Below, piece after piece: positions 704 through 41,313 of a DNA stretch of 64,000 bases; positions within the stretch are counted from its first letter, which is position 1, and the number at the start of each line of letters is the position of its first letter. Made by a program: the position numbers and the translations under genes. The notes below the pieces were generated by a model that searched no databases, was not told where the DNA came from, and saw only the letters and a program-made list of their open reading frames with translations. Origin of the DNA: a virus (Duplodnaviria > Caudoviricetes); IMG/VR virus record IMGVR_UViG_3300014204_000110. One strand, 5' to 3'.

Positions 704-718
704 CTAAGGAATAATATA

Positions 719-3700
719 ATGCCAACATATGATATAGGTACTGGACAGACCTACACTACGATATCTGCGTGGGAAACCGCCAGAGATATATCCCGGACAG
801 AAGATGAGGTCGGCGAATGCCTTGCCGAACTCTTTAATGAAAACGTCAACTTTACCGGAGGGACGCCAAACGGATACTGGATGAAGCTGCGTGGCAAGGC
901 TGGAGCGAGGCACGATGGCCGTGCTTACGAGGTCAGTAGTGTAGCCTGCGCCCGCATTTACCGCTCTGCAAATGCCACAACAGTAAACGTTGACGTCGGT
1001 GGCATAGAAATAGCATGGCTTGACATTAAAGGTCCGGGAAACTACACCCAGGACACCATCAGCCGTGCGGGTGACTTAACTGCCGATGGCGATTTCAGGC
1101 TACATCATTGTATCATACATAACAACTTTGCAAATAATAACGGCTCTCAGGTAGCCATCACGATGTCGGATGATTCGGAAACGACGAATTACCGAATATA
1201 TCGAAACCTCGTCTATGGCTTCGGTGGTGCTGGCATATTACCGTATCAGATTGGTGGTACTACAAAATACGTCTATGCGTACCATAATACTTGTGCTTTA
1301 TGTGGGCAAGTATTAGGTGAAACTGATGCTGGTGGTATTCAGAACAGTATGACAGAAAGTACCGCCTATTTTGAAAATAATGTCTCAGTTGGTCAACTAA
1401 ATGTAGATTATTATGGAACAAATTACGGTAGCTGGGACAACAATGCTTCTGAGGATACTACAGGAGATTCTACTGGTGGTCCTGCTCATAATGTAGACCT
1501 TAGAAGTCTTAATCCAAGTGGTTTATTTCAGAACTATACAAGCACTTATGCGTCTATTGATCTACGCACAAAAGTAGATTCTGATTTAATTGGAATGGGT
1601 GATACAACTTATTCTACTACCGATTTTCCTGAAATAGACATACCAATTACTGGTGGTGATGCTATTACAGGAACATGGGATATAGGAGCAGATCAATATG
1701 CAGAGGCTGTAAATACCGCAAGTAATTCTCCTTCTACTTCACCATCAAGTAGCGCAAGTAATAGCCCTTCTACTTCACCAAGCCCAAGTAATTCACCAAG
1801 TAATTCTTTATCTACAAGTGCTTCAAATAGTCCTTCTAGTTCAGTTTCAAATTCACTAAGTAACTCACCAAGTACATCTATATCAATTAGTCCTTCTACA
1901 AGTGAGTCAAGTTCACCATCTCCATCAAATAGTCCATCTACTTCTCCCAGTCCTGGAATTAGTGCTTCTAATTCACCAAGCACATCTTTAAGTAATTCTT
2001 TATCAGATAGCCCTTCTTCTTCGTTATCAAGTTCTATTAGTAGTAGTCCGTCTCCTTCTAATAGTGCAAGTGAATCACCTAGTACATCTTTAAGTGAAAG
2101 CCCATCAACAAGTTTATCAAGTAGTATTAGTAATTCTTTGTCTAGTAGTCCATCTACTTCTCCAAGTAGTAGTCCACCTGAATTTAGCCTAATATCTTAT
2201 TCTGATGATTATGATAATAATGCTATTCTTTATACACAAGAATTGTTCACTGTTCAAGAAAATGATTTATTAGTTGGTGTATGTATGTGGGAAGAGAGTA
2301 GTAGGACACCAATCTTACAAGAAAATACTTTAGCTTATAATTTTACAATGTTAGATGTTATTACAAATGCTAACAGTACAAATGTAAGATTTGGTTATCA
2401 TGTTGTAACTTCTGCGGAGGCTGGAACTGGGATTAGATATAGAGCAGATTATGGTTCTATTACATCATTAGCCACAATTTCTGTTTATTTATTTAGACCA
2501 ACTTCAGGTATCCCAGAAATAGAAGTGTTTGGTTCTGGAATTGGAACTGGAACATCTCCACAAACCAATAGTATATCTACAGCAGGGCCTTCTGTAATTG
2601 TAGCTGCATTAGATTGTTATGGCGGAGGAGTTAGTAATCAACAAATTAATTTAACTACTCCTGATACAATTTATACTTTAAGTTCAGATGAATCTACTTT
2701 TTATACAACTGAAACTTCTCTTTTATCCAATATTTATGCATCTGCTACATGCTCTAATGATGCGTGGGCAATGGGAATTATTGCTTTTAAAGTTTCTTCG
2801 GGAGGAAGTAGCGCCTCAAGTTCACCATCTACTAGTGAATCAAGTTCACCGAGTCCTAGTACATCCGTATCAAACAGTGTATCAAGTAGTTTATCAAATA
2901 GTGCCAGTGAATCTCCATCAAGTTCATTAAGTAATTCATTATCAGATAGCCCGAGTAGTAGCGAATCCTCTTCTATTTCAAATAGTCCATCACCAAGTTT
3001 ATCACCTTCTAATAGTGCATCTGATTCTCCAAGTAATAGCGAATCAAGTTCTCCTTCTTCGAGTATAAGTTCAAGTATATCAAGCAGTGTTAGTAATTCA
3101 CCATCAACATCTCCTAGTCCTTCAAATTCACCAAGTTCATCTATAAGTAGTTCTATTTCTAACAGTGCTAGTACAAGTCCTAGTTATAGTTTATCTAATA
3201 GTCCAAGTACCTCTATTTCTAATTCAAGTAGTAATAGTCCATCACCTAGTAATTCATTATCAAGTTCAGTATCATCAAGTCTTTCAACAAGTCCTTCTAC
3301 TTCATTAAGCAATAGTATTTCTAATTCACTTTCTTCGAGTATATCTTCGTCTCCAAGTAATAGTCCTAGTCCAAGCAATAGTCCATCTATTTCAGAATCG
3401 AATAGTCCTTCTACGTCTATTAGTAATAGTGCTTCAAGTTCCCCTTCGAGTTCACCTAGTCCAAGCAATTCTTTAAGCAATAGTCCATCTTTAAGTCCAA
3501 GTATTTCGTTGAGTAATTCACCATCTACTTCGCCTTCTCCATCAAGTTCTGTTTCTAATTCACCAAGTCCAGGAAATAGTGCTAGTAACAGTCCATCTAG
3601 TTCAGAATCTAATTCACCAAGTAATTCTTTAAGTACATCTATATCAAATAGTGCTTCAAATTCACCATCGCCAAGTAACAGTCCTTCTACCTCGTTGAGT

Positions 3701-5701
3701 AGTTCTATTTCTAATAGTATGTCTAGTTCACCTTCAAATTCATTAAGTAATAGTCTAAGTAATAGTGCGAGTAGTAGTGCAAGTAATAGTCCTTCACCAA
3801 GTAACTCTGTTAGTAATTCATTAAGTAGTTCACCTTCTACTTCAATAAGTAATAGTACTTCAAATAGTCCTTCAAGTAGTGCAAGCTCGTCACCAAGTCC
3901 TTCATACAGTTTAAGTAATAGTCCAAGTATAAGTACGTCTAATTCACCTAGTACTTCACCTTCTCCTTCGCATTCACCAAGTACAAGTCCAAGTAGTTCT
4001 ATTTCTAATTCTATAAGTACTAGTATCTCAACTAGTGTTTCTAATAGTGTAAGTAGTAGTATTAGTACGTCGCCTTCTACATCACCAAGTGGTGGTACTG
4101 AACATATTACTCAAATGACATATTATCCTGGTCCTGGTGATGCGGAGTTTGATGTAGATACTACTTATATAATTGATACATATGTTTCAGGTGAATGGAA
4201 TGGTACGTCTGGAAATTTAGTTAATTTTTATAGTAGTGCAAGTGGAGTTCAATCGACATTAGATTTACAAACTATTGGTAACGTTAATGTATCTTATATG
4301 ACTTTTAGAGATATAGAAATTATTAATGGTACTATAACTGCAGATTATACGTGTGATGGTAGTTCTTGGAATAATTCAGGAATAATTTTTTCAAATAATT
4401 CTCCTTCAACATCTATAAGTAGTTCAATTTCTAATAGTTATTCTTCAAGTCCAAGTAATTCACTTTCTAATAGTATTTCTAATTCATTATCAACTAGTAG
4501 TTCTAATAGTCCAAGTACAAGTATATCTAGTTCTCCAAGTCCTAGTAATTCACCATCACCATCATTGTCTCCTAGTAATAGTGTTAGTTCTAGTTTAAGT
4601 AATTCATTGAGTAGTTCAGAATCAAATAGTCCTTCAACATCACCAAGTCCAAGCAATAGCCCTTCTAGTTCTATTAGTTCAAGTTTAAGTAATAGTTTGA
4701 GTAGTAGTCTGTCAAATAGTCCAAGTACTTCTGTTTCTAATTCACTTAGTGAATCTGTATCAAATAGTTTATCAAATTCACCTAGTTCTTCACCAAGTCC
4801 AAGTAGTAGTGTAAGTAATAGTCCAAGTGAAGGAAATAGTGCATCTCAATCACCTTCGACTAGTCCTAGTCCTTCAAGTAGTATTAGTAATAGTATTTCT
4901 TCAAGTATTAGTAATAGTGCTAGTAATAGTCCTAGTCCTTCTATTTCACCTAGTAATAGTGAAAGTTCTAGTGTAAGTAATAGTCCATCAATAAGTGTTT
5001 CTAGTTCTATTAGTAGTAGTCCTTCTCCAAGTAATTCAATTAGTAATAGTCTAAGTAGTAGTGCTAGTACAAGTCTATCATCTAGTGTAAGTTCAAGTTT
5101 AAGTAATAGTATATCTACTAGTTTATCATCAAGTGTTTCTAGTTCACCAAGTCCTAGTAATAGTCCATCTAGTTCAATTTCTAGTAGTCTAAGTAATAGT
5201 GCTAGTTCTAGTATTTCTAGTTCTCCATCATCTAGTCCAAGTATTAGTTCTAGTCCAAGTTCTAGTAGAAGTAGTTCAGTTTCAAATAGTCTTAGTCAAA
5301 GTCCTTCAAGTAGTATTTCACATAGTCTTAGTAGTTCAGTTAGTCATAGTCCTTCATCAAGTCCAAGCTTAGGAGATCTAGATTATATATTAATTTTTCC
5401 AGAAACTGCATTAATTCCAGTTAGAGCACAACTTTTATTTATTGCAAAAGGCTATACTGAATATGATGTAGAAATACATGGACTTACTTTTGTTTGGTCA
5501 ACAACACTTGGACAAGTTATTAATAGTTCAACTGGATTATTTACTGCTGGAAGTTTTGCTGGTGGACCTTATGAAGTAACTGCTACAATTGGATCAATAA
5601 GTACTACTGCATATGTTACAGTATTTGAATTAAATAACACTCATAGGCGAAGAAGATTACTTCCAATTTTTCTTCAGTTTTGTGAACGTAAACGTAGATA
5701 A
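719..5701 (+). CDS. 1660-aa serine-rich-repeat (mucin/SRRP-like) virion or receptor-binding protein: N-terminal beta-helix-like domain, internal globular domains, C-terminal Ig-like domain
   Basis: AAGGA RBS; beta-helix-like N-terminus (IIHNN, IYRNLVYG, YHNTC, ENNVSV, WDIGADQY); three long S-x-S-[PLIV] tracts; Ig-like C-terminus (FVWSTT...GLFTAG...VTATIG...AYVTV). Confidence 0.7.
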   Translation: MPTYDIGTGQTYTTISAWETARDISRTEDEVGECLAELFNENVNFTGGTPNGYWMKLRGKAGARHDGRAYEVSSVACARIYRSANATTVNVDVGGIEIAWLDIKGPGNYTQDTISRAGDLTADGDFRLHHCIIHNNFANNNGSQVAITMSDDSETTNYRIYRNLVYGFGGAGILPYQIGGTTKYVYAYHNTCALCGQVLGETDAGGIQNSMTESTAYFENNVSVGQLNVDYYGTNYGSWDNNASEDTTGDSTGGPAHNVDLRSLNPSGLFQNYTSTYASIDLRTKVDSDLIGMGDTTYSTTDFPEIDIPITGGDAITGTWDIGADQYAEAVNTASNSPSTSPSSSASNSPSTSPSPSNSPSNSLSTSASNSPSSSVSNSLSNSPSTSISISPSTSESSSPSPSNSPSTSPSPGISASNSPSTSLSNSLSDSPSSSLSSSISSSPSPSNSASESPSTSLSESPSTSLSSSISNSLSSSPSTSPSSSPPEFSLISYSDDYDNNAILYTQELFTVQENDLLVGVCMWEESSRTPILQENTLAYNFTMLDVITNANSTNVRFGYHVVTSAEAGTGIRYRADYGSITSLATISVYLFRPTSGIPEIEVFGSGIGTGTSPQTNSISTAGPSVIVAALDCYGGGVSNQQINLTTPDTIYTLSSDESTFYTTETSLLSNIYASATCSNDAWAMGIIAFKVSSGGSSASSSPSTSESSSPSPSTSVSNSVSSSLSNSASESPSSSLSNSLSDSPSSSESSSISNSPSPSLSPSNSASDSPSNSESSSPSSSISSSISSSVSNSPSTSPSPSNSPSSSISSSISNSASTSPSYSLSNSPSTSISNSSSNSPSPSNSLSSSVSSSLSTSPSTSLSNSISNSLSSSISSSPSNSPSPSNSPSISESNSPSTSISNSASSSPSSSPSPSNSLSNSPSLSPSISLSNSPSTSPSPSSSVSNSPSPGNSASNSPSSSESNSPSNSLSTSISNSASNSPSPSNSPSTSLSSSISNSMSSSPSNSLSNSLSNSASSSASNSPSPSNSVSNSLSSSPSTSISNSTSNSPSSSASSSPSPSYSLSNSPSISTSNSPSTSPSPSHSPSTSPSSSISNSISTSISTSVSNSVSSSISTSPSTSPSGGTEHITQMTYYPGPGDAEFDVDTTYIIDTYVSGEWNGTSGNLVNFYSSASGVQSTLDLQTIGNVNVSYMTFRDIEIINGTITADYTCDGSSWNNSGIIFSNNSPSTSISSSISNSYSSSPSNSLSNSISNSLSTSSSNSPSTSISSSPSPSNSPSPSLSPSNSVSSSLSNSLSSSESNSPSTSPSPSNSPSSSISSSLSNSLSSSLSNSPSTSVSNSLSESVSNSLSNSPSSSPSPSSSVSNSPSEGNSASQSPSTSPSPSSSISNSISSSISNSASNSPSPSISPSNSESSSVSNSPSISVSSSISSSPSPSNSISNSLSSSASTSLSSSVSSSLSNSISTSLSSSVSSSPSPSNSPSSSISSSLSNSASSSISSSPSSSPSISSSPSSSRSSSVSNSLSQSPSSSISHSLSSSVSHSPSSSPSLGDLDYILIFPETALIPVRAQLLFIAKGYTEYDVEIHGLTFVWSTTLGQVINSSTGLFTAGSFAGGPYEVTATIGSISTTAYVTVFELNNTHRRRRLLPIFLQFCERKRR
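1718..2178 (+). repeat. Ser-X coding repeat block 1
   Basis: SNSP/STSP/SSSI/SNSL tetrapeptides with mixed TCN/AGY codons; boundaries approximate. Confidence 0.9.
2805..4090 (+). repeat. Ser-X coding repeat block 2 (~430 aa)
   Basis: Continuous S-x-S-x tract; boundaries approximate. Confidence 0.9.
4391..5369 (+). repeat. Ser-X coding repeat block 3 (~325 aa)
   Basis: Continuous S-x-S-x tract; boundaries approximate. Confidence 0.9.
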
Positions 5702-5718: not shown

Positions 5719-7152
5719 ATGGCTGTTTTACAAATAACTAATGGCGCTTGTACTGGTAGAGGTTTTGCTGATACGTCAGTTAGTGGATATATGTCAAAAT
5801 TTTATGATTGGATTACTAAAATACCAGCAAGTGGCGGTCCTGGATGGAATATACTTTTAGATAAGTCTATATATCCTACAACTAAAACTATGACTTCTAT
5901 GATAAGTGGAGTTATAATATCAAGTGGACATGGATTTTATTCAAATGAAATAATTCGATATTATACTTCTGGTACAATTATAAATGGTCTTACTAATAAT
6001 ACTGATTATTATGTTACGAAAGTAAATGATAATAGTTTTAAATTAAGTACAAATCATTTTAATGTTGGTATTGGAACATATATTAATATAACAAATTCTG
6101 GTGTTGGATCTCAAACTTTCACTTTAAGTGGTCCATATATTATAATTTCTGATGAACCATCTCCTCAAATTAATCAAGTTTGTAAATTTATGAAAGTTGG
6201 ATATGGAATTCCACAAGGAAGTTATATTCAAGTTCAATATTTTATAGGATGGAATAATACAAGTAAAATACTTGGAAGTATTTATGGTGGTTATATTATA
6301 GAAACTGTAGATGATGGTAATTTTGCATATGATTTTCGTGGTGGTGATGAATGTATGATTTTACAATCACGTATTGGTACTACTTGGGATTCTACTGGAA
6401 TGGATACTTGGACTGGAGATAGTACTTTTCTAGAAGGTCTTGATCATTCAGGAACTTTAAGGAGTGTTGGTGTGCCTGGTACTAATTCAGTAGCATACTT
6501 AAGATCTGGAGAATCTAGTAATATAACTAGTGGTGAATATTATTATTTATATGATTATTCTCAACTTCCTTATGTTCGTTTAGAATATTCTAAATGTACT
6601 TATGTTGATGCTGGAGCTGATAGTGTTACTTTTTCTGGATTAGTTCATACATTTCCATCAGGATCTGTTATTGGATCATATCCTCATAGATATATGTGTT
6701 TTGGTAATAATATTTATGATAATAATTCATTTTGTTATTCGACATATATACCATATACAATACCTTATACATCTCATCCTAATTGGTATTATTGTAGTAA
6801 TTTAGGATATGGATCTATTAGTTCAAGTTGTAGATCATCTTATGAAGATGGTATTTTAAATTCTTCATCTCCTGATGAAAAAGGTAGACATCTTATGGAA
6901 AAATGGAATATATTAGAATGGGCATCAAATCAAAGTAATTATACCACTCATAATTATAATGGTATGAATAGATTTTATGGATCTGCTAATAATTTATATT
7001 TAACTAAAATTAATTCAATGGCACGTAGTCAAGATGGATTAATTTATGGTGGAAAACAGTATCTATATTTTATGTTATCTAGTGAAATTGGTGGATATGG
7101 TGGAAGTGCTAGTTATGCTATTTTATATCCAGATAGTGTATCAAGTGAATAA
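5719..7152 (+). CDS. putative virion structural protein
   Basis: AGGAG RBS; beta-rich; segment HGF...IRY...GLTNNTDYYV...FKLS resembles phage tail/baseplate modules. Confidence 0.5.
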   Translation: MAVLQITNGACTGRGFADTSVSGYMSKFYDWITKIPASGGPGWNILLDKSIYPTTKTMTSMISGVIISSGHGFYSNEIIRYYTSGTIINGLTNNTDYYVTKVNDNSFKLSTNHFNVGIGTYINITNSGVGSQTFTLSGPYIIISDEPSPQINQVCKFMKVGYGIPQGSYIQVQYFIGWNNTSKILGSIYGGYIIETVDDGNFAYDFRGGDECMILQSRIGTTWDSTGMDTWTGDSTFLEGLDHSGTLRSVGVPGTNSVAYLRSGESSNITSGEYYYLYDYSQLPYVRLEYSKCTYVDAGADSVTFSGLVHTFPSGSVIGSYPHRYMCFGNNIYDNNSFCYSTYIPYTIPYTSHPNWYYCSNLGYGSISSSCRSSYEDGILNSSSPDEKGRHLMEKWNILEWASNQSNYTTHNYNGMNRFYGSANNLYLTKINSMARSQDGLIYGGKQYLYFMLSSEIGGYGGSASYAILYPDSVSSE

Positions 7153-8061
7153 ATGTCTATTTATAGTGGAATATTAGCATCTGGAAATATTGTATTTGGT
7201 GATTCTTATACAGTAGTTAATTTAAATATTCCAAAATCGTTCATTGAAAGTCAGATTGTTTCTGGTTCAATATGTACTGGTGAATCATATACAGTAATTA
7301 ATTTAAATATTCCAAAATCTTTTGTTGATGCACAAGTTATTAATCGCCATATATATTCTGGAGAATTTTATACAAAAGTTAATAATAATCGAGTATATAA
7401 TAATGGATCTTTAATTGTAACAGTTCCTAGATCTGGATTAGCCAATGATACTGGAATGTTACTTATTCTTGGATATTATACTGATTTTTATGCTAATCCT
7501 AGACTATCTTATCCATATAATAATATATACTTTTATGATAATACATATGGACCAGATATTTCATCTTATTATTGGAATTTTGGAGATGGTAATTATAGTA
7601 CTGAACGCGATCCAATTCATTTTTATACACATACTGGATTATATGATGTTTCATTAGAAACAACTTCTATAAATGGAGAAACTGCTTATTTAAATAAAAC
7701 TAATTATATTAACATTCAAAGCAATAATGTTTCAGTTAATCATTCAGATTATAAAATAGTAATTTTAAATAAACGAATAAGTCCATATAAATCCAATGAT
7801 CTTTTACAAATTTCAGTTCAATTGTATGAAAATAATAAAAAGAAACTATTCTATATTAAAGATGTTGTTCTTACATTAAATTTAAACTATCCTAATGGAT
7901 GGCAGGCATACTCATCTGGAATAACTAATAAAACTGGGTCTTGTGTCTTATATCAATCTTCTAGTGGTATATTATCCAGTAATTGTTTAGGATATGTTTC
8001 TGCAACAATAAATAACCAAAGTTATATTTCAAATATAATTAGATTTAACTTCATTAATTAA
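7153..8061 (+). CDS. PKD-domain virion protein with N-terminal ~27-aa tandem repeat
   Basis: PKD signature YYWNFGDG..STERDPIHFY...GLYDVSL; repeats G[DE]SYTV[VI]NLNIPKSF. Confidence 0.75.
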   Translation: MSIYSGILASGNIVFGDSYTVVNLNIPKSFIESQIVSGSICTGESYTVINLNIPKSFVDAQVINRHIYSGEFYTKVNNNRVYNNGSLIVTVPRSGLANDTGMLLILGYYTDFYANPRLSYPYNNIYFYDNTYGPDISSYYWNFGDGNYSTERDPIHFYTHTGLYDVSLETTSINGETAYLNKTNYINIQSNNVSVNHSDYKIVILNKRISPYKSNDLLQISVQLYENNKKKLFYIKDVVLTLNLNYPNGWQAYSSGITNKTGSCVLYQSSSGILSSNCLGYVSATINNQSYISNIIRFNFIN

Positions 8062-8068
8062 GGTAATT

Positions 8069-8482: not shown

Positions 8483-8490
8483 GGTAAACG

Positions 8491-13400: not shown

Positions 13401-13402
13401 CT

Positions 13403-25883: not shown

Positions 25884-27032
25884 TTACCTTCTGTATTTAT
25901 CTATTACAGTTATAAGTTTTTGAGTAGATTTATTCCAACTATAGTTATTAGCCATAAAATCTGCTAAAGCCTCGCTCTTATTAGTATATTTTGTTTGATC
26001 ATTAAAAGTTTCTTCAAGTTTAGATACATAATTATCTATATTAATATCTAACCAGTCTCCTTGATCACTTTTAAACCAAAAACCATCTTCAGCAGTAACA
26101 TATCCATTAGATTGAACTATAAGGTCTGTCTGTATATCTGGAGATCCTGGCACATATTCATTATGTCCAGTACAAAGAGTTGTAATTGTAGGAAGTCCAC
26201 AACCCATGTTTTGACTAAGACATAAATTCCATCCTTCAGAACGACTTATACTTATACCAACATTAGCTGAATGTATTAAAGATGGAACATTACATACTGG
26301 TATTGTAGGAGTAGTAAAATAAATATCACAAGATTTATATGTGAAAAGATGAGCTTTACCATTAAATCCTTTATATTCAAATCCATGCATTGTAGGATTA
26401 ACACCAGTCCAACAATTTAAATTCTTAAAAGGATGATCTTGAACATTATTTATAAAAGGATTAAAAGTATGACATATAAGTGCTACTTCTCGTTCTTTCA
26501 TGAGATTAATAAATGTTCTGATAGTAACGTCAGTATTCTTACGTTCTTCTCTTTTACCAGATGTTATATATGTGAACTTCTTTGTATCGATGTATTTATC
26601 TACTGGTATTGTATTAAATAGTGTATCATCAATACCTTCATTTATGACTTCGATAGGTTTAGAAAAATTATATTGTTCAAGAAGTTTTTTATGCTCTTCT
26701 GTTGTTGTAAGAATAATATCTGTTGGACCATTCTCAAGCATATGTCTAGAAACTTCTTTAAGTTTAGTTGTTTCAAAGATTGAGAAGGTAAGAAGAGGTG
26801 AACCACAAGCTTGGTTCGATAGGTTATCATGGAAGCAAAATATACTTGGAGATTTATAATCAAATTTTGTTGAAGTTGCATGTTTGAAATACATCTCATA
26901 GAAAGGATCAAGTTCAACTTGTCCAATTGGAGTAAGATTAACTTCTTGTCCATTTTCTATAAGAGCTTTTAAAATGTTTAGATTATGTAAAGAATATCCA
27001 AGATTTCCGACACTGCCATAAAGGTTGATCAT
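25884..27032 (-). CDS. GT-B (GT4-like) glycosyltransferase
   Basis: GKREERKN; SRSEGWNLCLSQNMGCGLPTITT. Confidence 0.85.
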   Translation of the reverse strand: MINLYGSVGNLGYSLHNLNILKALIENGQEVNLTPIGQVELDPFYEMYFKHATSTKFDYKSPSIFCFHDNLSNQACGSPLLTFSIFETTKLKEVSRHMLENGPTDIILTTTEEHKKLLEQYNFSKPIEVINEGIDDTLFNTIPVDKYIDTKKFTYITSGKREERKNTDVTIRTFINLMKEREVALICHTFNPFINNVQDHPFKNLNCWTGVNPTMHGFEYKGFNGKAHLFTYKSCDIYFTTPTIPVCNVPSLIHSANVGISISRSEGWNLCLSQNMGCGLPTITTLCTGHNEYVPGSPDIQTDLIVQSNGYVTAEDGFWFKSDQGDWLDINIDNYVSKLEETFNDQTKYTNKSEALADFMANNYSWNKSTQKLITVIDKYRR

Positions 27033-27224
27033 ATAATTACTTACGTTAAGGTGAGATTATTTCTTAAATATTGTATAAAACATTCTAGATCGCAAAACAT
27101 ATTATTATATTCTATATAATGCATATTATTAGGAGTATATATAAATGTTCCTTTAAGATCATCATTTTGAATTGATAATCCTTTATTTTCTTCTATTATT
27201 TTATTACAGTGAGTACAATTCATA

Positions 27225-27485
27225 TTAGTTTTTATATATTCCAATAATGTGGCATTCTCTAATAGTGTAGTATAATATATTATCTACTTCAAGAGGTGTC
27301 GCGTCACACTTATAAAACAAAACTACTTTTCCTACTTCAGTGATTTTAACATTAGGACCGATTGCTTCTATACGTCCATATTGCCAAGGATTACTGTCAT
27401 GACCTGTTAGTATAATTCCACCACTAGCTTTTTTTTCAATAAGTGTAACTATAATTCTATCATTTGCTGCTATTAAGTTTATCAT
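27225..27485 (-). CDS. groES: co-chaperonin GroES
   Basis: NDRIIV...ASGGIILTG...GRIEAIGP...VGKVVLF. Confidence 0.85.
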   Translation of the reverse strand: MINLIAANDRIIVTLIEKKASGGIILTGHDSNPWQYGRIEAIGPNVKITEVGKVVLFYKCDATPLEVDNILYYTIRECHIIGIYKN

Positions 27486-28482
27486 CTTTTAATTCCTTTT
27501 TAAGTATTTCAACAATTTTAATTGAACTGTCTCCAGATCCAAATGGACATATATAATCATCTAATTTTTTATTTAACATTCTTCTAAATGATACTGGTAA
27601 AAATTCTGGTGTCTTACACAGGCTCGCATTCAGCCACAAGGCTTCTTGTCTCTCTGTGCAACGTCTTGCAACTATTATTTTTCTTTTCAAAAAACAAGCT
27701 TCTTCTTGAATACCACCACTATCACTTATTATTAATATACTTTTTTTAATTTCAATAATCAAGTCTTCTCTACTTAAAGGCTTAATTATTTTAACCTTCG
27801 GTATAAGATGCTTAAACTTTTGTATCTCTGGATTAGGATGCATTGGAAATATAAACTCATATTGTGGATACCATCGTGTAAGCTTGTCTATTTGAATGAA
27901 CCATTGATCTAAGATTGGCAAGTTCTCTCTACGATGCATTGTAATTAATACTTTATTTTCTTGTGGTATTGGAGTAGGATCAATAGTATCTAAAACGGTG
28001 TTACCGACCATATAAATTGGTTTCCTTATACCCTCAGAACGTATGTTAAAACAATTCTGCTTGGTAGCACAGAAATGATATGAAGCAATAGAACTTATCA
28101 TTCTACGTAATGCTTCTTCTGGATATGGATTTTCAATGTCCCATGATCTCATTCCCGATTCCAGATATAGAATCGGAATATTTCTTGTAAAAGCAGCTAA
28201 TGCTGTAGCGTATGCAGTTACTGTATCACCTTGGACTAAAACATGTGTACAACCTTCTAAGATATCATTTTCTTGATCTAAAATGTTGAGTACTACGTTA
28301 TTAAGTCTATTAGTAGATATGTCTCCTAAAGTGATTGTAACGTGTTCTGGCAGGTCTGGAATAAGATCTGTGTGTTGAGTTATATAGATAAGTTTAAATG
28401 GTATATTAGCTGCTTTAAGATGAGGTATAAGTGGAAGTATTTTTATAATCTCGGGGCGTGTACCGAATATTAAATGAATCAT
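27460..28482 (-). CDS. wecB: UDP-N-acetylglucosamine 2-epimerase (non-hydrolysing)
   Basis: FGTRPEIIK, VQGDT, ESGMRS, PEE, HRREN, DSGGIQEEA. Confidence 0.95.
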   Translation of the reverse strand: MIHLIFGTRPEIIKILPLIPHLKAANIPFKLIYITQHTDLIPDLPEHVTITLGDISTNRLNNVVLNILDQENDILEGCTHVLVQGDTVTAYATALAAFTRNIPILYLESGMRSWDIENPYPEEALRRMISSIASYHFCATKQNCFNIRSEGIRKPIYMVGNTVLDTIDPTPIPQENKVLITMHRRENLPILDQWFIQIDKLTRWYPQYEFIFPMHPNPEIQKFKHLIPKVKIIKPLSREDLIIEIKKSILIISDSGGIQEEACFLKRKIIVARRCTERQEALWLNASLCKTPEFLPVSFRRMLNKKLDDYICPFGSGDSSIKIVEILKKELKDDKLNSSK

Positions 28483-28816
28483 TATAATTTATTTTCTTGA
28501 AGGAAGTGAAATAATAAATCCAAGTATTGTACCAAATATAGTAGCAGGAAGACCAAGCATACAAAATGCTAATGCTCCAAGTAACATAGAAGTTATAGTT
28601 TTATCAATTTGTTTGAATGTAATCATAAACTCTTTTTCCATTTTCAACGTATTGATTATTTCTAGGATCATTTTCTTTAAAATACTTAAAATCTTCTAGA
28701 ATTCCTGTAATAGGATTACCATCTAGATCAGTATAAATATTTAAATCATAATCAAAATGATTAATAAATGTCCATTCATTATATTTATATATTTTCATAT
28801 TGTTCTTTACAAATAA

Positions 28817-28904
28817 TAGCGGTGGATGGATTTGAACCATCGAACTCCTTGTGGGAGTTTGGATTTATGAGACCCATGACCTTGGCCAGCTAGTCGACAC
28901 CGCA
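28817..28904 (-). tRNA. tRNA with CAU anticodon (Met/fMet/Ile2-like) and atypical long variable arm
   Basis: TGCGGTG/CACCGCT acceptor, GACT/GGTC D-stem, TGGGT-CTCATAA-ATCCA, AACTCC-CACAA-GGAGTT arm, GATGG-TTCAAAT-CCATC; CCA not encoded. Confidence 0.85.
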
Positions 28905-28911
28905 GTAATAT

Positions 28912-29148
28912 TTAGTTATCTTCTTTAAGTTTATCTAATTGTTCAGATAGTATATTATTTACCATTTGATTTAATGTAATATCTTCTTCATGAGCTTTTG
29001 TAGCTAGAAATATAAAATCTTCATCAGATAGTTCTATTTCAATAGACTTTTTATTTTCATCTTCACATAGTTCTATGATAAGATCACATAGATCATCATT
29101 TACTTCAAATTCAATACCATCATTAATTTTTATTTTGTTACTAGACAT
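28912..29148 (-). CDS. small ribbon-helix-helix-like DNA-binding protein
   Basis: IELSDEDF..LA.KAHE.DITLNQMV..IL; start moved to MSSNK because the longer ORF runs into a tRNA. Confidence 0.55.
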   Translation of the reverse strand: MSSNKIKINDGIEFEVNDDLCDLIIELCEDENKKSIEIELSDEDFIFLATKAHEEDITLNQMVNNILSEQLDKLKEDN

Positions 29149-29167
29149 ATTGCTTCTTTCTTTTAAA

Positions 29168-29244
29168 TGGTTCCTGCGGAGGAATTCGAATCCTCGTTTC
29201 AAGAGTCACGATCTTGTGTCCTAACCAACTAGACGACAACAGGC
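29168..29244 (-). tRNA. atypical tRNA, GUG anticodon (His by anticodon) on a Glu-like body
   Basis: GTCT-AGTTGGTT-AGGAC D-arm, CAAGA-TCGTGAC-TCTTG, GAGGA-TTCGAAT-TCCTC, encoded CCA; imperfect acceptor stem. Confidence 0.7.
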
Positions 29245-29252
29245 TTAATTAT

Positions 29253-29612
29253 TTATTCAGATCTATGATTACCTTTAACTTCAAGATAACCTTCATTTGT
29301 TTCTTGTTGAATTCTATTTTTAATAGATATTCTTATCTTATTTTTATCTCTTATAGCTAAAGCACGTTTCCCTACTTCTTCAAGACCAAGTTTATCCTCT
29401 AAAAAATTTCTAATATCTGCCTCTAAATCCCATATCTGACCATTAATATCTTTAAGTTCTCTAAACCATTTGTCTTCATAAGGACATTTAAATTCTTTAA
29501 GAGCGTTTACAAGGTCATTATATTCTTTTATGATTCTATTATCTTTTAAACGTTCAATTTTAAGTATTACAATACTAAGTCTATCAAGTATTTCTGGAAG
29601 TGGATATTGCAT
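29253..29612 (-). CDS. DUF6165-like helical protein
   Basis: EILDRLSI..LKIER...L..IN.QIWDLE.DIR...A..I...N..R..IK..I. Confidence 0.65.
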   Translation of the reverse strand: MQYPLPEILDRLSIVILKIERLKDNRIIKEYNDLVNALKEFKCPYEDKWFRELKDINGQIWDLEADIRNFLEDKLGLEEVGKRALAIRDKNKIRISIKNRIQQETNEGYLEVKGNHRSE

Positions 29613-29621
29613 AAAATCTTT

Positions 29622-30674
29622 CTAGAAGAAGTTATAAAACATTCGGTCTTTAATAATTACATTCTCATATATTTCGTTTACTGATGAAAATGTGCATCTT
29701 GGGCACTGTTTTACATCTATTGAATTATGTATATTTTTATGTTTTTCTGATCCCCATATATTACTTTCAGATATATTTCCAAGTTCAATTGAATTATCAC
29801 CACGACGATCACAGCATAATCCAATTGTTCCATCAAAACTTATATAACATGTTGTTAAACATGTATAACATTTATTAAAGGTTAGTTTAGGAGACCAATT
29901 TTCAGAAAATTTATTAACTACTGAAAATATTTTAAAATTATCATCTTCAAAATCTGATCTTGCTCTATTAATTTGTTCTTCTACAATTTTAATGATATTT
30001 TCATTAAATCGTATCATATTTCTATCAAACCAAGGATCACTTCCTGGACGCATATGAAAAAGATCACAACCAATATTTTTAGCTAATTTGATAGCATCAT
30101 ATATTTCATTATAATTTGTTGGTAAAAGTAGATATTTATAACATATTTCAAGACCTTTAGAGGTTATATTAGATATATTTCTTATAACAGTATTAAATAT
30201 GTCTTCATTAACTCCTTTTACTACTGAAAATGTTTTAGATGTTGCACAATCTACTGATATTCCTAAATAATCGCATTTTAATATAGTTTCAATATTTTTA
30301 TTTAATTTTACACCATTTGTTACAAAAGCTATTTGAATATTATTTTCTTTTAATTGATCAATAAGATAATAAGTATTATCATTAGTTAAAGGCTCCCCAC
30401 CACCCCCAATACAAATCGATGCTGTAAACCATTGATTTTTAAAGACTTGTATTAATTGATCTACTGTTTCTTTGGACATCATACCTTGTTTAGTTTGTAG
30501 TGCTTCTGCGGCATTGCAGTGTTTACAATTGAGTTGACAAATAGCACTAGGATCTACTGAAACAAATAATGGTGGAGCAATTGTATTGGTATCATATGCT
30601 TTTTTCCAATATGGAACATGTACAAGTGCTTTCATACTATTAAACGAATTATATTTATTATGCCACTCTTTCAT
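29622..30674 (-). CDS. radical SAM protein with SPASM/Twitch domain (in glycan island)
   Basis: CQLNCKHC, GGGEP, VTNG; C-terminal C...ISFDGTIGLCC...CPRC. Confidence 0.9.
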   Translation of the reverse strand: MKEWHNKYNSFNSMKALVHVPYWKKAYDTNTIAPPLFVSVDPSAICQLNCKHCNAAEALQTKQGMMSKETVDQLIQVFKNQWFTASICIGGGGEPLTNDNTYYLIDQLKENNIQIAFVTNGVKLNKNIETILKCDYLGISVDCATSKTFSVVKGVNEDIFNTVIRNISNITSKGLEICYKYLLLPTNYNEIYDAIKLAKNIGCDLFHMRPGSDPWFDRNMIRFNENIIKIVEEQINRARSDFEDDNFKIFSVVNKFSENWSPKLTFNKCYTCLTTCYISFDGTIGLCCDRRGDNSIELGNISESNIWGSEKHKNIHNSIDVKQCPRCTFSSVNEIYENVIIKDRMFYNFF

Positions 30675-31575
30675 CTCTATCCTTTATTTTATTAAAAATT
30701 ACTTCACTATCGTAATTTAAAACTTTATTATATGCTTTATCTATTATACTTGTATAATTATTATAGTTTAAAGTTATATCAATTATTAACTTTTTTAATT
30801 CTTCTATCGATTTCCAATATATAAATTCATCTTTATTAAACCAATATTCCATTACATTCCAAGTATCGTATTTAATTAAATTTAATGTTTTACATGCTGC
30901 TGCTTCTATGACTCTACTTTTAAATTGTGGAATATAATAATCTTGAAGATTAGAAAAAGCTATATTATCATTCCAATTTTTATAAGTTTTTATGTTATTA
31001 ACGTGATAATCGTTTATTGGACAAGCGTTTATAGTAATATTAATTTTTGATTGTTTAAGTAATTTCCATTTGCTGATTGTTGGAATATTAAAATGTGTTT
31101 GAAGTCTATGAGTTTGTAATGTTGTAAAAATGTATTTAAATTCTGGTAATAAATTAATTATATTTTCTTGTTCTTGATTAGTTATATTACCTTGGTATAT
31201 AACATCAAACATTTTATTTTCATCTTTAATTACACTATTAAGATACTTAATATTCATTGGAAAAGCAATAGGAAAATACTTTTTCTTATCTTTATTTAAC
31301 CAATCAGCAGTATAAGGACATATTGTATAAATTTTATCAAAGTATTCTTGAGAAGAAATAGCATTGGATGTTGATGTAAAAGCACAAGGAGCTTCTAGAT
31401 TGAGATATATTTTTCGTTTATAGTCTTTATATTTTAATTTAAGATTTTCGTTTATAGATGTATTATAACCCTGAAATAATATTTCTTCTTGTGAGTTATC
31501 ATTATATAAGTTATAAAAATAATAATTATTTAATGCATCTGGATATTCACCAGTTTTATCATGAATAACTTTCAT
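30658..31575 (-). CDS. GT-B glycosyltransferase-like protein (CgeB-type C-terminus)
   Basis: FDVIYQG, SKINIT, KSRVIEAAACK. Confidence 0.65.
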   Translation of the reverse strand: MKVIHDKTGEYPDALNNYYFYNLYNDNSQEEILFQGYNTSINENLKLKYKDYKRKIYLNLEAPCAFTSTSNAISSQEYFDKIYTICPYTADWLNKDKKKYFPIAFPMNIKYLNSVIKDENKMFDVIYQGNITNQEQENIINLLPEFKYIFTTLQTHRLQTHFNIPTISKWKLLKQSKINITINACPINDYHVNNIKTYKNWNDNIAFSNLQDYYIPQFKSRVIEAAACKTLNLIKYDTWNVMEYWFNKDEFIYWKSIEELKKLIIDITLNYNNYTSIIDKAYNKVLNYDSEVIFNKIKDRDERVA

Positions 31576-32264
31576 TTTACAAAGATCATTCCATAATTTA
31601 TACGTCGATATATATCTGAAGTTTTAAGTAATTCAAATGTTATTTCTTCGTAGTTATAATAACTTGTTGGTTCTTCTAGATATGCATCTCCTCGATCATT
31701 AAAAGTTATTTTACTTATATCTTTTATGTTATCTATATAACCTATAATTCCAAATTTAGTATATTTTAAATCAAATAGATATCTTATACATTTCAAAGCT
31801 TCATCTAATAATTCTTCATGCCATTCAAAGCATATCTTATTTTGTTTAGATGTAAGACCTTGTAAGACTGAATATTCATAGCCTTCAACGTCTATTTTAA
31901 TAATATCAGGAGATCCATATTGTTTAATAAGTGTATCTAGAGTAATTGTATCTATATTTTGAACAGTTGGCCAAGTTACTACATTTTGAGTAGCTTGTAA
32001 GTTCTTACTTCCAAGTACAAATCTAGATTGATTTATAAATTTATCTGAAGCTGTAGAAATACCATCATTACCTTGGCTACCAATGTAAAATGTTTTAGTT
32101 TCATTATCTTTGTTTGAGACTAATTTATTTATATATGTAATATTTTTATGTCTTGAATTTAATGTATTGTTTGCTTCTATTGCAATAATTTCACAATCTG
32201 GATATAATTCTAGACATCGATCTGTAAAATTACCTTTATTATAACCTATATCAAATATTTTCAT
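31572..32264 (-). CDS. FkbM-family methyltransferase
   Basis: FDIGYNKG, IEAN, TITLDTL, IKIDVEGYE. Confidence 0.9.
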   Translation of the reverse strand: MKIFDIGYNKGNFTDRCLELYPDCEIIAIEANNTLNSRHKNITYINKLVSNKDNETKTFYIGSQGNDGISTASDKFINQSRFVLGSKNLQATQNVVTWPTVQNIDTITLDTLIKQYGSPDIIKIDVEGYEYSVLQGLTSKQNKICFEWHEELLDEALKCIRYLFDLKYTKFGIIGYIDNIKDISKITFNDRGDAYLEEPTSYYNYEEITFELLKTSDIYRRINYGMIFVK

Positions 32265-32992
32265 ACTGTTCTTGAATCTAATATTTCTTTTAAATGTTTA
32301 TATTTTTTATTTATATATTGTTTATCTACAATTTCATTAGATTGAATACCATTCCAACCATGAGTATATGTCTTGTTTTCTTTTATGCATTCAAAATTAT
32401 TTGAAACTAATAAATCATTTATTTTGTAATTATCATCATCTTTTTCATAATGATTAAATACCGTTGTTTCTACATTAATAAATACTATCTTATGTAGATA
32501 TTCTGATATACTCTGTAATATATTATAATCTTTTCCTTGAGTATCAATTTTAATATGTTCTATATACTTAAATCGTTTCCAAGGTATTAAACTTAAAAAA
32601 TATTCTAAAGATATTACAGGAACTTTAATAACTTCTTTTACTGTATAAGGTAAATATTTAGTTGGTTTATATAAACTAGAGCATCCTGGATCAGTATTAG
32701 TAACATAAAAATCTGTATAAGTTGGCTCAATTATATTATCTAGAGCAGTATATAATAATTTAAAATTAGGATCATTAGTTAAACCTAAATGATTAATACT
32801 ATTAATATTACTTGGAAGAGGTTCAAATGCAAAGATTATTCTATCTTTAAGAGTTCTTAACCAAAGTTGTGAATTTGGAGCACAATATGAAAGACCAATA
32901 TCTAATTTAATATTAGATATGTTTTTTGGAATTATTAAAATATTGTCTTCAATTAGTTTAGTAAGACCAATTTTTTCGTATATATTTACCAT
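32261..32992 (-). CDS. FkbM-family methyltransferase
   Basis: LDIG, AFEP, SSLYKP, IKIDTQGKD. Confidence 0.85.
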   Translation of the reverse strand: MVNIYEKIGLTKLIEDNILIIPKNISNIKLDIGLSYCAPNSQLWLRTLKDRIIFAFEPLPSNINSINHLGLTNDPNFKLLYTALDNIIEPTYTDFYVTNTDPGCSSLYKPTKYLPYTVKEVIKVPVISLEYFLSLIPWKRFKYIEHIKIDTQGKDYNILQSISEYLHKIVFINVETTVFNHYEKDDDNYKINDLLVSNNFECIKENKTYTHGWNGIQSNEIVDKQYINKKYKHLKEILDSRTV

Positions 32993-33717
32993 TCTTGTCT
33001 TTCTGCTGGATTGTAAAGTCCACGTTTGTTCATATCTATATTATATTCTTGAGTAAGTATATTTAATTCTTCTGGATATTCTAAGTAATTCCATTTTCTT
33101 CTTATAATTGCTGTTGCTATTATTGGAAATATTAAACTATCATAATGATGTTGACCACGCTTTGGTTGTCCATGATATACAAAACTTCCTGTTAATCCTA
33201 ATTTTCTAGACGCATATGTGTATTGTTGTCGTTCAACAAAATCAAGAACTTTAGCAGTTTTATACATATTTATAAAATCTAAACGATTCCATATAGAAGC
33301 TTGCATACAATAAAATAAAGGATGTCCACATGGAACATCAAATAAATCTTCTTTTATTCGGTTAAATCCAGTAAGATCGTTTGCTATAAACTTAACAAAA
33401 CTTTTTTTAGATTCATCTAAAAAATTTAAATAGAAGTTTAATTTATTAAAATTAGGTCTATCTGTAAGTATAAAATCTTCTTGCATATAGATAAAATATT
33501 TACAATCTAATGTCTCTAAAAAATTTACCCATTGTTTCCAATATGGTTGTTTTTCATCATATAAATTAAATTTATGATTTTGATATTTATCAGAAAGTTT
33601 ATTAGATATAACATAACTATCTACATTAGGAATATATTTATCTAACTGACCAAAATACATTGGCCAAATATCTTCACAACTTGAATGTGTATAAGTAACT
33701 ATTGGTATATTTAACAT
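32986..33717 (-). CDS. GT-A-like glycosyltransferase
   Basis: YMQEDF (DxD-like), QASIW, AII..KW. Confidence 0.55.
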   Translation of the reverse strand: MLNIPIVTYTHSSCEDIWPMYFGQLDKYIPNVDSYVISNKLSDKYQNHKFNLYDEKQPYWKQWVNFLETLDCKYFIYMQEDFILTDRPNFNKLNFYLNFLDESKKSFVKFIANDLTGFNRIKEDLFDVPCGHPLFYCMQASIWNRLDFINMYKTAKVLDFVERQQYTYASRKLGLTGSFVYHGQPKRGQHHYDSLIFPIIATAIIRRKWNYLEYPEELNILTQEYNIDMNKRGLYNPAERQEW

Positions 33718-34349
33718 AAGTTTTTAAATACTGTAAAAGTAGTAAGATCTCTATATGGTGGATCTTCAATAAGTGGCTCTGTATGTCTAGGATAATTTGC
33801 TAATAGATTTAAACCATGAGCAGCTTGCTCGGGCGACATATAACAGTTGTACCCAAGTTCAGTAATATCATCATCACGATAATTACATTCGCCACGTCCA
33901 TCATAACGCATACGTTTAAGTTTTTCATATGCTATTTTGTTATCAGTAAGAATTGCACCACCTCTAGATATTGCTAATTGTTTCTTGCTATGGAAGCTAA
34001 GGCATGTTAAACTTGATTGAATATACATATCTGAAGTAAGCCATTTAGCACTATCTATAATAGGAGTAGGATCTAATTGGTAATAACCATTCCAAGTAAT
34101 ATCTTTAAATTTAATTTTATATCCAGCATGTAAAAATGATTGAGGAACTGAAAGATATGTTCTTTTAGGAACTGTTACCTCTGGAAGTTCTTTATATACA
34201 TATCGTTTAAGATATTCAGCACATAGAAATAAAGCAATTGTACAACTATCTACCGTAACACAAAATGGTGCTCCTGTATATTCACATAGTTCTGCTTCAA
34301 ACATTTGATTTATCTTAAATGGATTATGAACTATACTTTTTTGAGACAT
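33711..34349 (-). CDS. short DegT/DnrJ/EryC1/StrS-family PLP aminotransferase
   Basis: FEAELCEYTG, DSCTIAL, IIDSA, SFHSKKQL, RGGAILT, GYNCYM. Confidence 0.85.
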   Translation of the reverse strand: MSQKSIVHNPFKINQMFEAELCEYTGAPFCVTVDSCTIALFLCAEYLKRYVYKELPEVTVPKRTYLSVPQSFLHAGYKIKFKDITWNGYYQLDPTPIIDSAKWLTSDMYIQSSLTCLSFHSKKQLAISRGGAILTDNKIAYEKLKRMRYDGRGECNYRDDDITELGYNCYMSPEQAAHGLNLLANYPRHTEPLIEDPPYRDLTTFTVFKNLC

Positions 34350-34350
34350 T

Positions 34351-34731
34351 TTAATCTACCAATGTATAAGTTAATTTATGTTTATCAAAAAACTGTTGTC
34401 CAGATATATTAGTTTTTCGCACTTTAATATCTAGAAATGGATATTCTCTAATAATAGAATATAATAATTCTGTACCAATACCTTTATTATAATAATCTGG
34501 ATGTACTGCTATTCTAAGATCATTATTAACTACTCCAATAAATCCTACTGGAATGTTATTTAATAAATAAATATAATAACTAGATCCATATTTAGACATG
34601 TATTTTTCTTGAGATTCTTGAGATATATAAGTATGATCTACAAATGAATCTGATAATCTAGTGTCATTTCTAAGAGATCGTATGAATTCCCAATATATTT
34701 TGTTATTATTAACTTGTATTATCATATGCAA
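34351..34731 (-). CDS. GNAT N-acetyltransferase (PseH-like)
   Basis: IRSLRND, AVHPDYYNKGIG, N..GQQFF. Confidence 0.8.
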   Translation of the reverse strand: MHMIIQVNNNKIYWEFIRSLRNDTRLSDSFVDHTYISQESQEKYMSKYGSSYYIYLLNNIPVGFIGVVNNDLRIAVHPDYYNKGIGTELLYSIIREYPFLDIKVRKTNISGQQFFDKHKLTYTLVD

Positions 34732-35516
34732 ACCCTATGACTTAATCCATATGGTTGCTTATATTTCCATTTAGCTAAGAGATAATCTCTGTCTATAGGT
34801 AGATTTAAATAATAATTCAATGTAGTTCCTATATTTAAATATGTATTTTTGTTATTAAATTGATGAAGTTGATGTATTAAAATATTACTTAATGAAGATG
34901 CTGAAAATAAATATACTCTATTTTGACTATCTTGTCCAGTAAAATCTTTAAGATCTTCTATTAAATCTATATCATTAACTATACAATTTTCTCCAACATG
35001 AAAAATTGCTGATGTTTTAAATGGTAATTTATGTATACTTTTTGATTCTACTGGTAATATTAATGAATTTTCATTACATATTAAAATTACTTCTTTAGAT
35101 TTAAATAAAGGAACTATAACATCTATAAAAAAGTCATAGTTATTATTAACCAAGAGATTTGCCCAGGTAAGATTACTATGATCTTTTAATTCATTTAACA
35201 TCCAATTATATCGTTCATTTCCGACGCAACACTTACATATTTTACCTTTATAATAGTTATCTGCTTGGTAATAAAATGAATCTAGAAGCAAATGTCTTAT
35301 ATGTTGATGTTTGTTTGGATCAAAACATTTATGATCTATACTTGGAAAACCTTTATTAAATATTGTATCTCCAAATATAACTTGATTATTATTAATTTCA
35401 AGTTTATAATTTTTAAGTATAGCTTCGCACCCATCGCTGAAGCGAGTGAAACTAAAAGGAATATTGTTTTTAAGTCTATGATAAAATTCTATTATATCAC
35501 CTCTAAACGTCTTCAT
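34722..35516 (-). CDS. GT-D-fold (DUF1792-like) glycosyltransferase
   Basis: FSFTRFSDG (cf. RFGDGE), LFSASSLSNIL, YLNIGT. Confidence 0.6.
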   Translation of the reverse strand: MKTFRGDIIEFYHRLKNNIPFSFTRFSDGCEAILKNYKLEINNNQVIFGDTIFNKGFPSIDHKCFDPNKHQHIRHLLLDSFYYQADNYYKGKICKCCVGNERYNWMLNELKDHSNLTWANLLVNNNYDFFIDVIVPLFKSKEVILICNENSLILPVESKSIHKLPFKTSAIFHVGENCIVNDIDLIEDLKDFTGQDSQNRVYLFSASSLSNILIHQLHQFNNKNTYLNIGTTLNYYLNLPIDRDYLLAKWKYKQPYGLSHRVCI

Positions 35517-35874
35517 TGTGATCCTTTAAAATTATAATTTTGTCTACGTTCCAATCTCCAGTAAGCTCTGGAAAGAATTCAAAAAACATACCACTATGTA
35601 TAAGATTATCATAAAATTCTTTAGTATTAATCGTTTTATATTTGTTCATTAATCCTCGACGTGTCTAGATATAAATTTATAAATTAAATAAAGTATACAA
35701 ATATATAGAATAAAATATAACATTTATTTCTTCTTAAATATAATAATATAAGTAAGTATAATAATTGCTAATATAATACCTAAAATTAAACCTAAACCTA
35801 AAAAGAATTTAAACAATGGTAAAAAGAATATAAAAGTTGAATATCCTAAACCAATAAGTAAAAGACTGAGTAAA

Positions 35875-36063
35875 CTAATCATTAATATTTTCATTTTTAA
35901 TCCTTATATTTGATTTTTTATGTTCGCATTCAATATTATTTGAAATACAATATGTATAATATGATTCGTTTTTGAGATATTTAAAATCACATTTTATTTT
36001 CCAATTTGCTAAACATATATAATCTTTTTCATATTGTGCTCTATCTCGTAAATTTATAGACAT
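35875..36063 (-). CDS. small Cys-containing protein with MSINLR N-terminus
   Basis: 62 aa. Confidence 0.45.
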   Translation of the reverse strand: MSINLRDRAQYEKDYICLANWKIKCDFKYLKNESYYTYCISNNIECEHKKSNIRIKNENIND

Positions 36064-36998: not shown

Positions 36999-37286
36999 AA
37001 GATCCTTTAAATAAAAGACGTTTTTAAATGACCGTAGAAGAACGCCAAAACTTCCCTATAGTTACTCATGCATATTTTACTATATACACCATTTGAGCAT
37101 TGTTAAGAGGCTTGTGTGGTCAATTTCATTCCCATGTTTCTTTATATGTAAATTGTACAGTTTTAATACTTTTTATTATTTTATCTAATTTTTCTAAGGT
37201 ATAATTCCATTCAAGAGTATCTTTATTATAACTAAGTATATCATTATATAGATTTTCTAGATCAGTTTTAATATTCAATTATACCT

Positions 37287-38915: not shown

Positions 38916-38917
38916 AA

Positions 38918-39085: not shown

Positions 39086-39105
39086 AATATTTCTTTCTAA
39101 GTATA

Positions 39106-40929: not shown

Positions 40930-40936
40930 AATTTAT

Positions 40937-41312: not shown

Positions 41313-41313
41313 A

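Follow-up and report, generated by a model that had tools for sequence, protein, structure and literature searches.

Protein glycosylation is already known from serine-rich repeat proteins (SRRPs), from mucins and from the virions of mycobacteriophages, which are the closest described systems to the one reported here. The SRRP adhesins of Gram-positive bacteria, for instance GspB, Fap1, SraP and the L. reuteri SRRPs with their pectate-lyase-like binding region, have globular binding regions flanked by long tracts of Ser-x dipeptides, and are glycosylated in the cytoplasm before export; some of them also join a beta-solenoid (Pfam PF20585) to the Ser-x (SX) repeats. In mucin-type O-glycosylation, enzymes of glycosyltransferase (GT) family 27 (GALNT1/2/4/7/9/10/12) act on Pro-containing hydroxy-amino-acid repeats, with a preference for Pro-rich acceptors. 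Phage-encoded glycosyltransferases can also act on the phage's own structural proteins: as summarised in PMC12619734 and cited in PMC12582341, mycobacteriophages glycosylate the C-termini of their capsid and tail-tube proteins (Freeman 2023). In this work, we analysed a stretch of 64,000 nucleotides from an uncultured large phage of the class Caudoviricetes (IMG/VR record IMGVR_UViG_3300014204_000110; hereafter, the window), which encodes P0001, a protein of 1,660 amino acids (aa) with three long SX tracts. We lean, with slightly better than even confidence, towards reading P0001 as a modular fibre whose SX spacers are O-glycosylated by a phage GT27-like enzyme; overall, the protein is probably a sugar-coated virion fibre.

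The coding sequence of P0001 (719..5701, plus strand) is open throughout its frame, and a ribosome-binding site, TAAGGA with an AAGGA core, was read from the sequence at 705..710 on the same strand, 8-9 nt before the ATG. By a sliding count of Ser, the protein was split into seven parts, all encoded on the plus strand. The first, D1 (aa 1-335; 719..1723), is a right-handed parallel beta-helix head ending in WDIGADQY, and is followed by R1 (aa 336-491; 1724..2191), an SxSx tract of 156 aa with Ser at 95% of alternate positions. Then come D2 (aa 492-692; 2192..2794), a double jelly-roll beta-sandwich; R2 (aa 693-1123; 2795..4087), the longest tract, with 431 aa and Ser at 99% of alternate positions; D3 (aa 1124-1222; 4088..4384), a small globular domain of 99 aa; R3 (aa 1223-1550; 4385..5368), a tract of 328 aa with Ser at 98% of alternate positions; and D4 (aa 1551-1641; 5369..5641), a bacterial Ig-like domain identified by BLASTP matches. 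A C-terminal tail, HRRRRLLPIFLQFCERKRR (5642..5698, plus strand), closes the protein with RRRR, a short hydrophobic stretch, a Cys and a basic end. This layout agrees closely with an earlier, sequence-based note on the same DNA (the original prediction), which had proposed that about 900 of the 1,660 residues form SxSx tracts separating a beta-helix-like head, two internal domains and an Ig-like domain, followed by a basic tail exactly as given above; the three tracts hold 915 aa, the whole protein contains 584 Ser, and the two internal domains correspond to D2 and D3.

The x positions of the tracts are occupied by Pro (25%), Asn (18%), Ser (16%), Leu (10%), Ile (9%) and Thr (8.5%). The share of Pro, lower than the 37% found in 80 reference SX proteins, agrees with the preference of GT27 enzymes for Pro-rich acceptors. 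At the DNA level, Tandem Repeats Finder reported only weak, short repeats, and the Ser codons are a mixture of AGT, TCA and TCT; therefore, the tracts do not represent a recent tandem array. As the original prediction had noticed, P0001 shows neither a signal peptide, with no hydrophobic region at its N-terminus (MPTYDIGTGQ...), nor an LPxTG motif in a regular-expression search. No membrane helix was detected either, the peak hydropathy window (1.64, against a usual mark of 1.6) falling in strands of the Ig-like domain. No other SX protein is encoded in the window.

The evidence that SX tracts may be enzyme substrates comes from other phages, in which they accompany one particular enzyme family. 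In a forward test, 237 viral loci were fetched with two DNA patterns of Ser codons, and a locus was counted as an SX locus when it held an open reading frame (ORF) with an SX tract of at least 100 aa. This was the case for 8 of the 237 loci, with none among the 119 loci retrieved by the AGY codon pattern. All-against-all BLAST of the SX loci after repeat masking revealed two neighbour families common to otherwise unrelated SX contigs, one being a GT-A glycosyltransferase and the other a Methyltransf_24 methyltransferase. The former was present in 6/8 SX loci and 0/207 non-SX loci (Fisher p 2e-10) and the latter in 4/8 and 0/207, respectively; as the hidden Markov models (HMMs) of both families derive from those same SX loci, it is the recurrence over six contigs and the absence from controls that make these figures informative.

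The SX-partner GT-A family belongs to Pfam Glycos_transf_2. When its profile (A4) was compared with the PDB, GALNT9, 1, 4, 10, 2, 12 and 7 were the best matches, at E-values of 8e-14 to 2e-8; the alignment covers the GT27 catalytic domain from end to end, with the DxH motif, the Gal/GalNAc-T motif WGxExxEL...W..GG and the conserved downstream His; D82, H84, E229 and H251 are invariant within the phage family. The phage enzymes measure 278-334 aa and are soluble, their catalytic domain starting at residue 3. They differ from the mucin-type GT27 enzymes in this compact form (280-335 aa in the comparison), which has no type II membrane anchor and no C-terminal ricin-type lectin domain, and in their acceptors, which are almost purely Ser and not Thr.

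A reverse test started from the enzyme. Its profile retrieved at least 515 relatives in viral contigs, from which 80 loci were kept. At an identity threshold of 80%, the enzymes group into 72 clusters, and the guanine-plus-cytosine (GC) content of the loci ranges from 28 to 58%. SX ORFs reaching 100 aa were present in 57 of the 80 loci, and those reaching 30 aa in 67, compared with 0/133 loci without the enzyme family (p 2e-33); this baseline comprises the 119 AGY-pattern loci and 14 D1 viral loci, the latter judged by SX counts. Among the 13 enzyme loci without any SX tract, 12 are cut within ~4 kb of the gene on one or both sides, and when at least 5 kb was available on both sides, 31 of 32 loci held an SX ORF reaching 100 aa. 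Each of the 80 SX ORFs shares the strand of the enzyme, at a median distance of 697 nt, and as a positive control the enzyme was recovered in 5/5 expected records. The co-occurrence across phages that the original prediction had offered as a check was thus found, with SX genes tracking glycosyltransferases; the partner is a GT27-like GT-A enzyme and not the GT4 enzyme that had been proposed.

The cassettes around the enzyme also include further GT-A paralogues (~3.7 per locus), Methyltransf_23/24 proteins, and RmlD-like epimerase, UDP-glucose-dehydrogenase-like and radical-SAM-like proteins, and genes for the major head protein and the prohead protease flank the cassette in 6-7 loci. At locus L178 (6677-13964), four SX proteins of 163, 541, 814 and 163 aa stand beside three GT-A genes of the GT27-like family, and one cassette may serve several SX substrates. 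A second paralogue group beside the enzyme (A3 rows 7-10; e.g., L162:8258-9058, L178:4028-4807 and L255:194-1024) has no Pfam match and no DxH, and may be either an elongating enzyme or a non-catalytic partner. Furthermore, one SX-protein family, present in 25 GT27-like loci (among them L286, L287, L300, L301, L311, L322, L327, L337 and L350), ends in a domain that is conserved between its members and contains the motif DFxLTxxxxDLTNYKDxxxxISCRVYQ; this domain may serve as a shared module for docking or receptor binding. The enzyme is also present in metagenome-assembled genomes (MAGs) of the candidate phyla radiation (CPR; Woesebacteria, Saccharibacteria and Collierbacteria) and in one Nanoarchaeota MAG, and an SX ORF lies downstream in 7/10 close relatives. 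Relatives at 53-60% identity occur in MAGs labelled Gammaproteobacteria (L351, L353, one MAG) and Nanoarchaeota (L358); both Gammaproteobacteria loci hold no SX ORF within 8 kb, and these copies could correspond to prophages, binning errors or a different use.

P0001 itself is tied to these cassettes by its relatives. In L162, a 93.8-kb phage record rated 100% complete, a single protein combines a D1 homologue (E 1e-50) with ~730 aa of SX tracts, and a GT27-like gene lies 1.7 kb downstream of it; by sequence, this protein is a direct architectural relative of P0001. Two further GT27-like loci encode SX proteins headed by a D1-type domain (L278) or a D2-type domain (L292).

On this basis, P0001, with four globular modules strung on three Ser-x-Ser-x spacers, would be a modular fibre of a large tailed phage. 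The modules are a beta-helix that may bind or cleave polysaccharide, a double jelly-roll of receptor-binding type, D3 and the Ig-like domain. The Arg-rich C-terminal tail, inherited from stand-alone head relatives, would probably dock the protein. O-glycosylation of the spacer serines would take place in the host cytoplasm, through a soluble GT-A enzyme that the phage encodes and that belongs with the relatives of GT27 polypeptide GalNAc-transferases, and the glycan would be extended by partner GT-A paralogues and methylated by S-adenosylmethionine-dependent methyltransferases. The glycosylated spacers would then become rigid bottle-brush rods that resist proteases and keep the binding modules at a great distance from the virion; assuming 0.25-0.35 nm per residue, they might span roughly 40-55 nm (R1), 110-150 nm (R2) and 80-115 nm (R3). 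A broader proposal, to which we give an even chance, is that a mucin-type protein O-glycosylation system of the cytoplasm, based on a soluble GT27 homologue, GT-A paralogues and methyltransferases, is common to tailed phages and the ultra-small bacteria of the CPR, and turns dedicated Ser-x tracts of fibre proteins into bottle-brush rods, P0001 being an extreme, multi-headed product that arose through a ~1,300-residue insertion between head and docking tail.

Several observations weigh against this interpretation of P0001. No GT27-like gene was found within the 64-kb window, the best HMM E-value being 0.03, and the x positions of P0001 hold more Asn, Ser and Thr, and less Ala and Val, than those of the usual partners of GT27-like enzymes. 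Three repeat-bearing records were found without the enzyme: one of 184.8 kb, rated 51% complete; a 42.6-kb provirus, rated 94% complete, in which the tract is mostly poly-Ser; and a 10-kb fragment. The evidence linking enzyme and SX proteins is one of association and not of biochemistry: the layout of P0001, its folds and the linkage across phages are observed, whereas its role as a substrate and the presence of a sugar on Ser are inferred. In addition, a virion-attachment domain was not recognised in P0001, none of its domains having a PHROG match, and the baseplate-wedge/tail-fibre PHROG match of the 477-aa protein encoded downstream spans 70 residues only.

The records without the enzyme, and its absence from the window, would be expected if the SX tracts were unmodified disordered spacers, that is, entropic linkers providing reach and flexibility; the composition of the tracts alone predicts disorder. 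We consider this alternative unlikely. Tracts that never act as substrates would not readily account for the near-obligate same-strand linkage seen in the fully flanked loci, and bare Ser tracts of 400 residues would be exposed to proteases. That a phage makes an O-glycosylated, extended Ser-repeat fibre, the general inference of the original prediction, is supported by this same gene association in other phages, even though the GT4/GT-D mechanism proposed for it was not upheld, as described below.

We infer the location of P0001 in the virion only from the folds of its globular domains and from its gene context. None of the four globular parts was matched by Pfam or PHROG. The AlphaFold2 (AF2) model of D1 (pLDDT 81.5, pTM 0.87) is a right-handed parallel beta-helix, and Foldseek returned pectin methylesterases, pectate lyases and GH136 enzymes, all of the pectin-lyase fold, in agreement with the beta-helix-like head of the original prediction. 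D1 (aa 1-335) had no Pfam match and no relative in GenBank phages; its profile matched 34 ORFs at the fetched loci (fewer without duplicate records) at 25-41% identity, the family being spread over many phage contigs. Most members of the family are stand-alone proteins of ~340 aa that end at WDIGADQY plus a short tail. Two members continue beyond this point in other ways, L020:1075-2233 into pure poly-Ser and L023:4811-7921 into SSSS-acidic repeats rather than SxSx; fusion of a D1-type head to a Ser-rich spacer has therefore occurred repeatedly.

D2 was modelled as two jelly-roll halves (AF2, pLDDT 94.2). In BFVD, its fold resembles actinophage proteins annotated as 'minor tail protein' (TM 0.64-0.79), and each half is similar to TNF-like lectin folds and to the heads of phage receptor-binding proteins (RBPs) at middling Z scores (6-7.7). 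The 49 detectable relatives are mostly stand-alone proteins of ~230 aa; the family is missing from PHROGs, was not retrieved from viral_contigs and had no PDB match by sequence. Many of the stand-alone members (P0125, P0128, P0131, P0144, P0147, P0158, P0162 and P0163) share the C-terminal pattern [IV]P[IV]xMxxYRRLR, absent from 3,162 background ORFs, and signal peptides are present in three long members of cellular origin, which end in basic, Trp-rich tails. For D3, no Pfam or PHROG match was obtained, and the Atlas gave weak leads only, to viral hypothetical proteins with scores of at most 0.86. D4 matched by BLASTP, at E-values of 1e-11 to 1e-5, the repeated domains of P0171 (Pfam Big_1 and Invasin_D3) and P0172, confirming the proposed Ig-like domain; a sequence comparison of D4 with the PDB gave chance-level matches only.

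P0001 ends in THRRRRLLPIFLQFCERKRR, and the close D1 relatives L015 and L011/L012/L031 end in GNRRRR-hydrophobic-Cys directly after D1; by comparison, RRRR occurs within the last 25 aa of 18/3,162 background ORFs. As the ending of P0001 resembles this tail of stand-alone D1 relatives, the simplest reading of the sequences is that an ancestral D1-type head was separated from its tail by the insertion of spacers and modules, ~1,300 residues in all. The tail pattern of the D2 family was also compared with that of P0001 and gave no exact match; the resemblance claimed here is to the RRRR tail of the D1 family.

With respect to described phage proteins, P0001 shares with receptor-binding and minor tail proteins a tailspike-type beta-helix in D1, in addition to the likeness of D2. 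It differs from phage tail fibres in stringing several unrelated heads on SX spacers instead of on a trimeric shaft, with no N-terminal anchor recognised. It would also differ from the mycobacteriophage systems, as far as these are described in the sources cited above: the modified regions there are short C-terminal ends, whereas the would-be substrates here are repeat tracts of hundreds of residues in fibre proteins, and the enzyme family is another.

The surroundings of P0001 are phage-like, with primase-helicase, ClpP, Rad52-like and sigma-factor-like proteins encoded in the window. Immediately downstream, co-directional structural-type genes (5719..8061, plus strand) encode the 477-aa protein mentioned above and a 302-aa protein with a PKD domain, and a 'virion structural protein' PHROG match lies further on, at 18056-19411. 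The proteins encoded on either side of P0001 (2-703 and 5719-7152) had no relatives in viral_contigs, and the contig of the window was itself missing from viral_contigs, metagenome_contigs and GenBank phages.

The lack of a recognised attachment domain, together with a D1 fold typical of polysaccharide lyases and esterases, could also suit a protein that is not part of the virion at all, namely a depolymerase or adhesin released or displayed during infection to remodel the host surface or matrix. Such a role appears quite unlikely for a protein without signal peptide or membrane segment, which stands first in a co-directional run of structural-type genes, has a D2 fold similar to that of phage minor tail proteins, and has relatives whose cassettes adjoin head genes.

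The original prediction had further regarded P0001 as a viral analogue of the SRRP system, pointing to GT4-like and GT-D-like genes in the window. The likeness proved to be one of composition. A whole-protein search with P0001 does return Gram-positive SRRPs, via the repeats only, and the same search returns many metagenomic SX proteins without signal peptides, with Laminin_G_3, Beta_helix or phage Collar domains. Unlike the SRRPs, P0001 has neither the KxYKxGKxW signal nor LPXTG, and the window lacks the accessory Sec genes (SecA2, SecY2, Asp1-3), a GtfA/B equivalog and GT-D; no Sec family had a Pfam match among all window ORFs of at least 400 aa, and no match to GT-D/DUF1792 (PF08759) was found in the sugar island described below or in the other scanned ORFs of the window, even at E<=5, which removes the GT-D-like gene of the prediction. 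Moreover, it is a GT-A family, not a GT4, that accompanies SX proteins in phages. With the repeats as the sole SRRP-defining feature found, we reject membership of P0001 in this group.

The GT4-like genes of the prediction do exist. A glycan-biosynthesis island on the minus strand (25884..43803) encodes, according to Pfam, two GT4 proteins, together with a Glyco_trans_1_2 protein, a weak GT2, a WecB 2-epimerase, DegT, GNAT, two FkbM methyltransferases and a radical SAM/SPASM protein. A SRRP-like route could accordingly be imagined, in which the GT4 enzymes of the window prime the serines in the manner of GtfA/B or SdgA/B and the 18-kb island, with its WecB, DegT, GNAT and methyltransferase genes, extends the glycan; the 503-aa GT4 protein is similar in length to those enzymes, and its top NCBIfam matches are SdgB, SdgA and GtfA. 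We consider this route very unlikely. These matches reach 24-26 bits against cut-offs of 575-800 (24 bits and 574.6 for the GtfA equivalog), MshA/BshA score as well, the alignment covers the C-terminal Rossmann half only, and the Atlas places the protein among generic viral GT4 clusters, for which we reject it as a GtfA/B-type primer; no GT-D accompanies it, the island lies 20-38 kb from P0001 on the opposite strand, and the forward test brought up no GT4 family as a recurrent neighbour of SX proteins. The island is a possible sugar-donor supply or elongation set, or its products may be destined for something else, for instance DNA or the host surface.

Base composition changes along the gene, D1 having 44% GC in a ~25% GC genome and D2-D4 32%, while the structural genes further downstream (5719-24000) have 20-25%. 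Such a fall in GC could also arise if the ORF were an artefact, either a chimera assembled across low-complexity sequence or a frame that is open by chance; this is hardly credible for an open frame of 4,983 nt in AT-rich DNA that encodes four independently foldable or homologous domains, is preceded by a ribosome-binding site, ends in the same kind of tail as D1 relatives, and shares its D1-plus-SX architecture with L162. The first 2 kb of the window (the ORF at 2-703 and most of D1) average 42% GC, and the nearest D1 relatives lie on contigs with 59-63% GC. Given this contrast with the downstream genes and the composition of the closest relatives, the D1-bearing block (1-1723) looks like a recent acquisition.

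Full-text literature searches returned no description of phage SX fibres or of GT27-like phage enzymes, and a glycosylated phage SX fibre of the P0001 type has probably not yet been described in print. If the proposal is correct, mucin-like glycoproteins would not be limited to eukaryotes and a few Gram-positive adhesins; phage fibres would commonly be built on this principle too, with the help of relatives of the enzymes initiating mucin glycosylation in animals. Models of phage surfaces would change accordingly with regard to host recognition, resistance to proteases and immunity, and adhesion to glycan-rich matrices. It would also provide a source of small, soluble, Ser-directed O-glycosyltransferases for glyco-engineering, and would raise the question of the origin of GT27 enzymes.

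Regarding other features of the window, the ClpP-like protease is encoded at 24996-25592 and a protein with sigma-70 region 2 at 54278-55105. Finally, the Rad52/22-like annealing protein adjoins GIY-YIG and PD-(D/E)XK nucleases (50683-53336).

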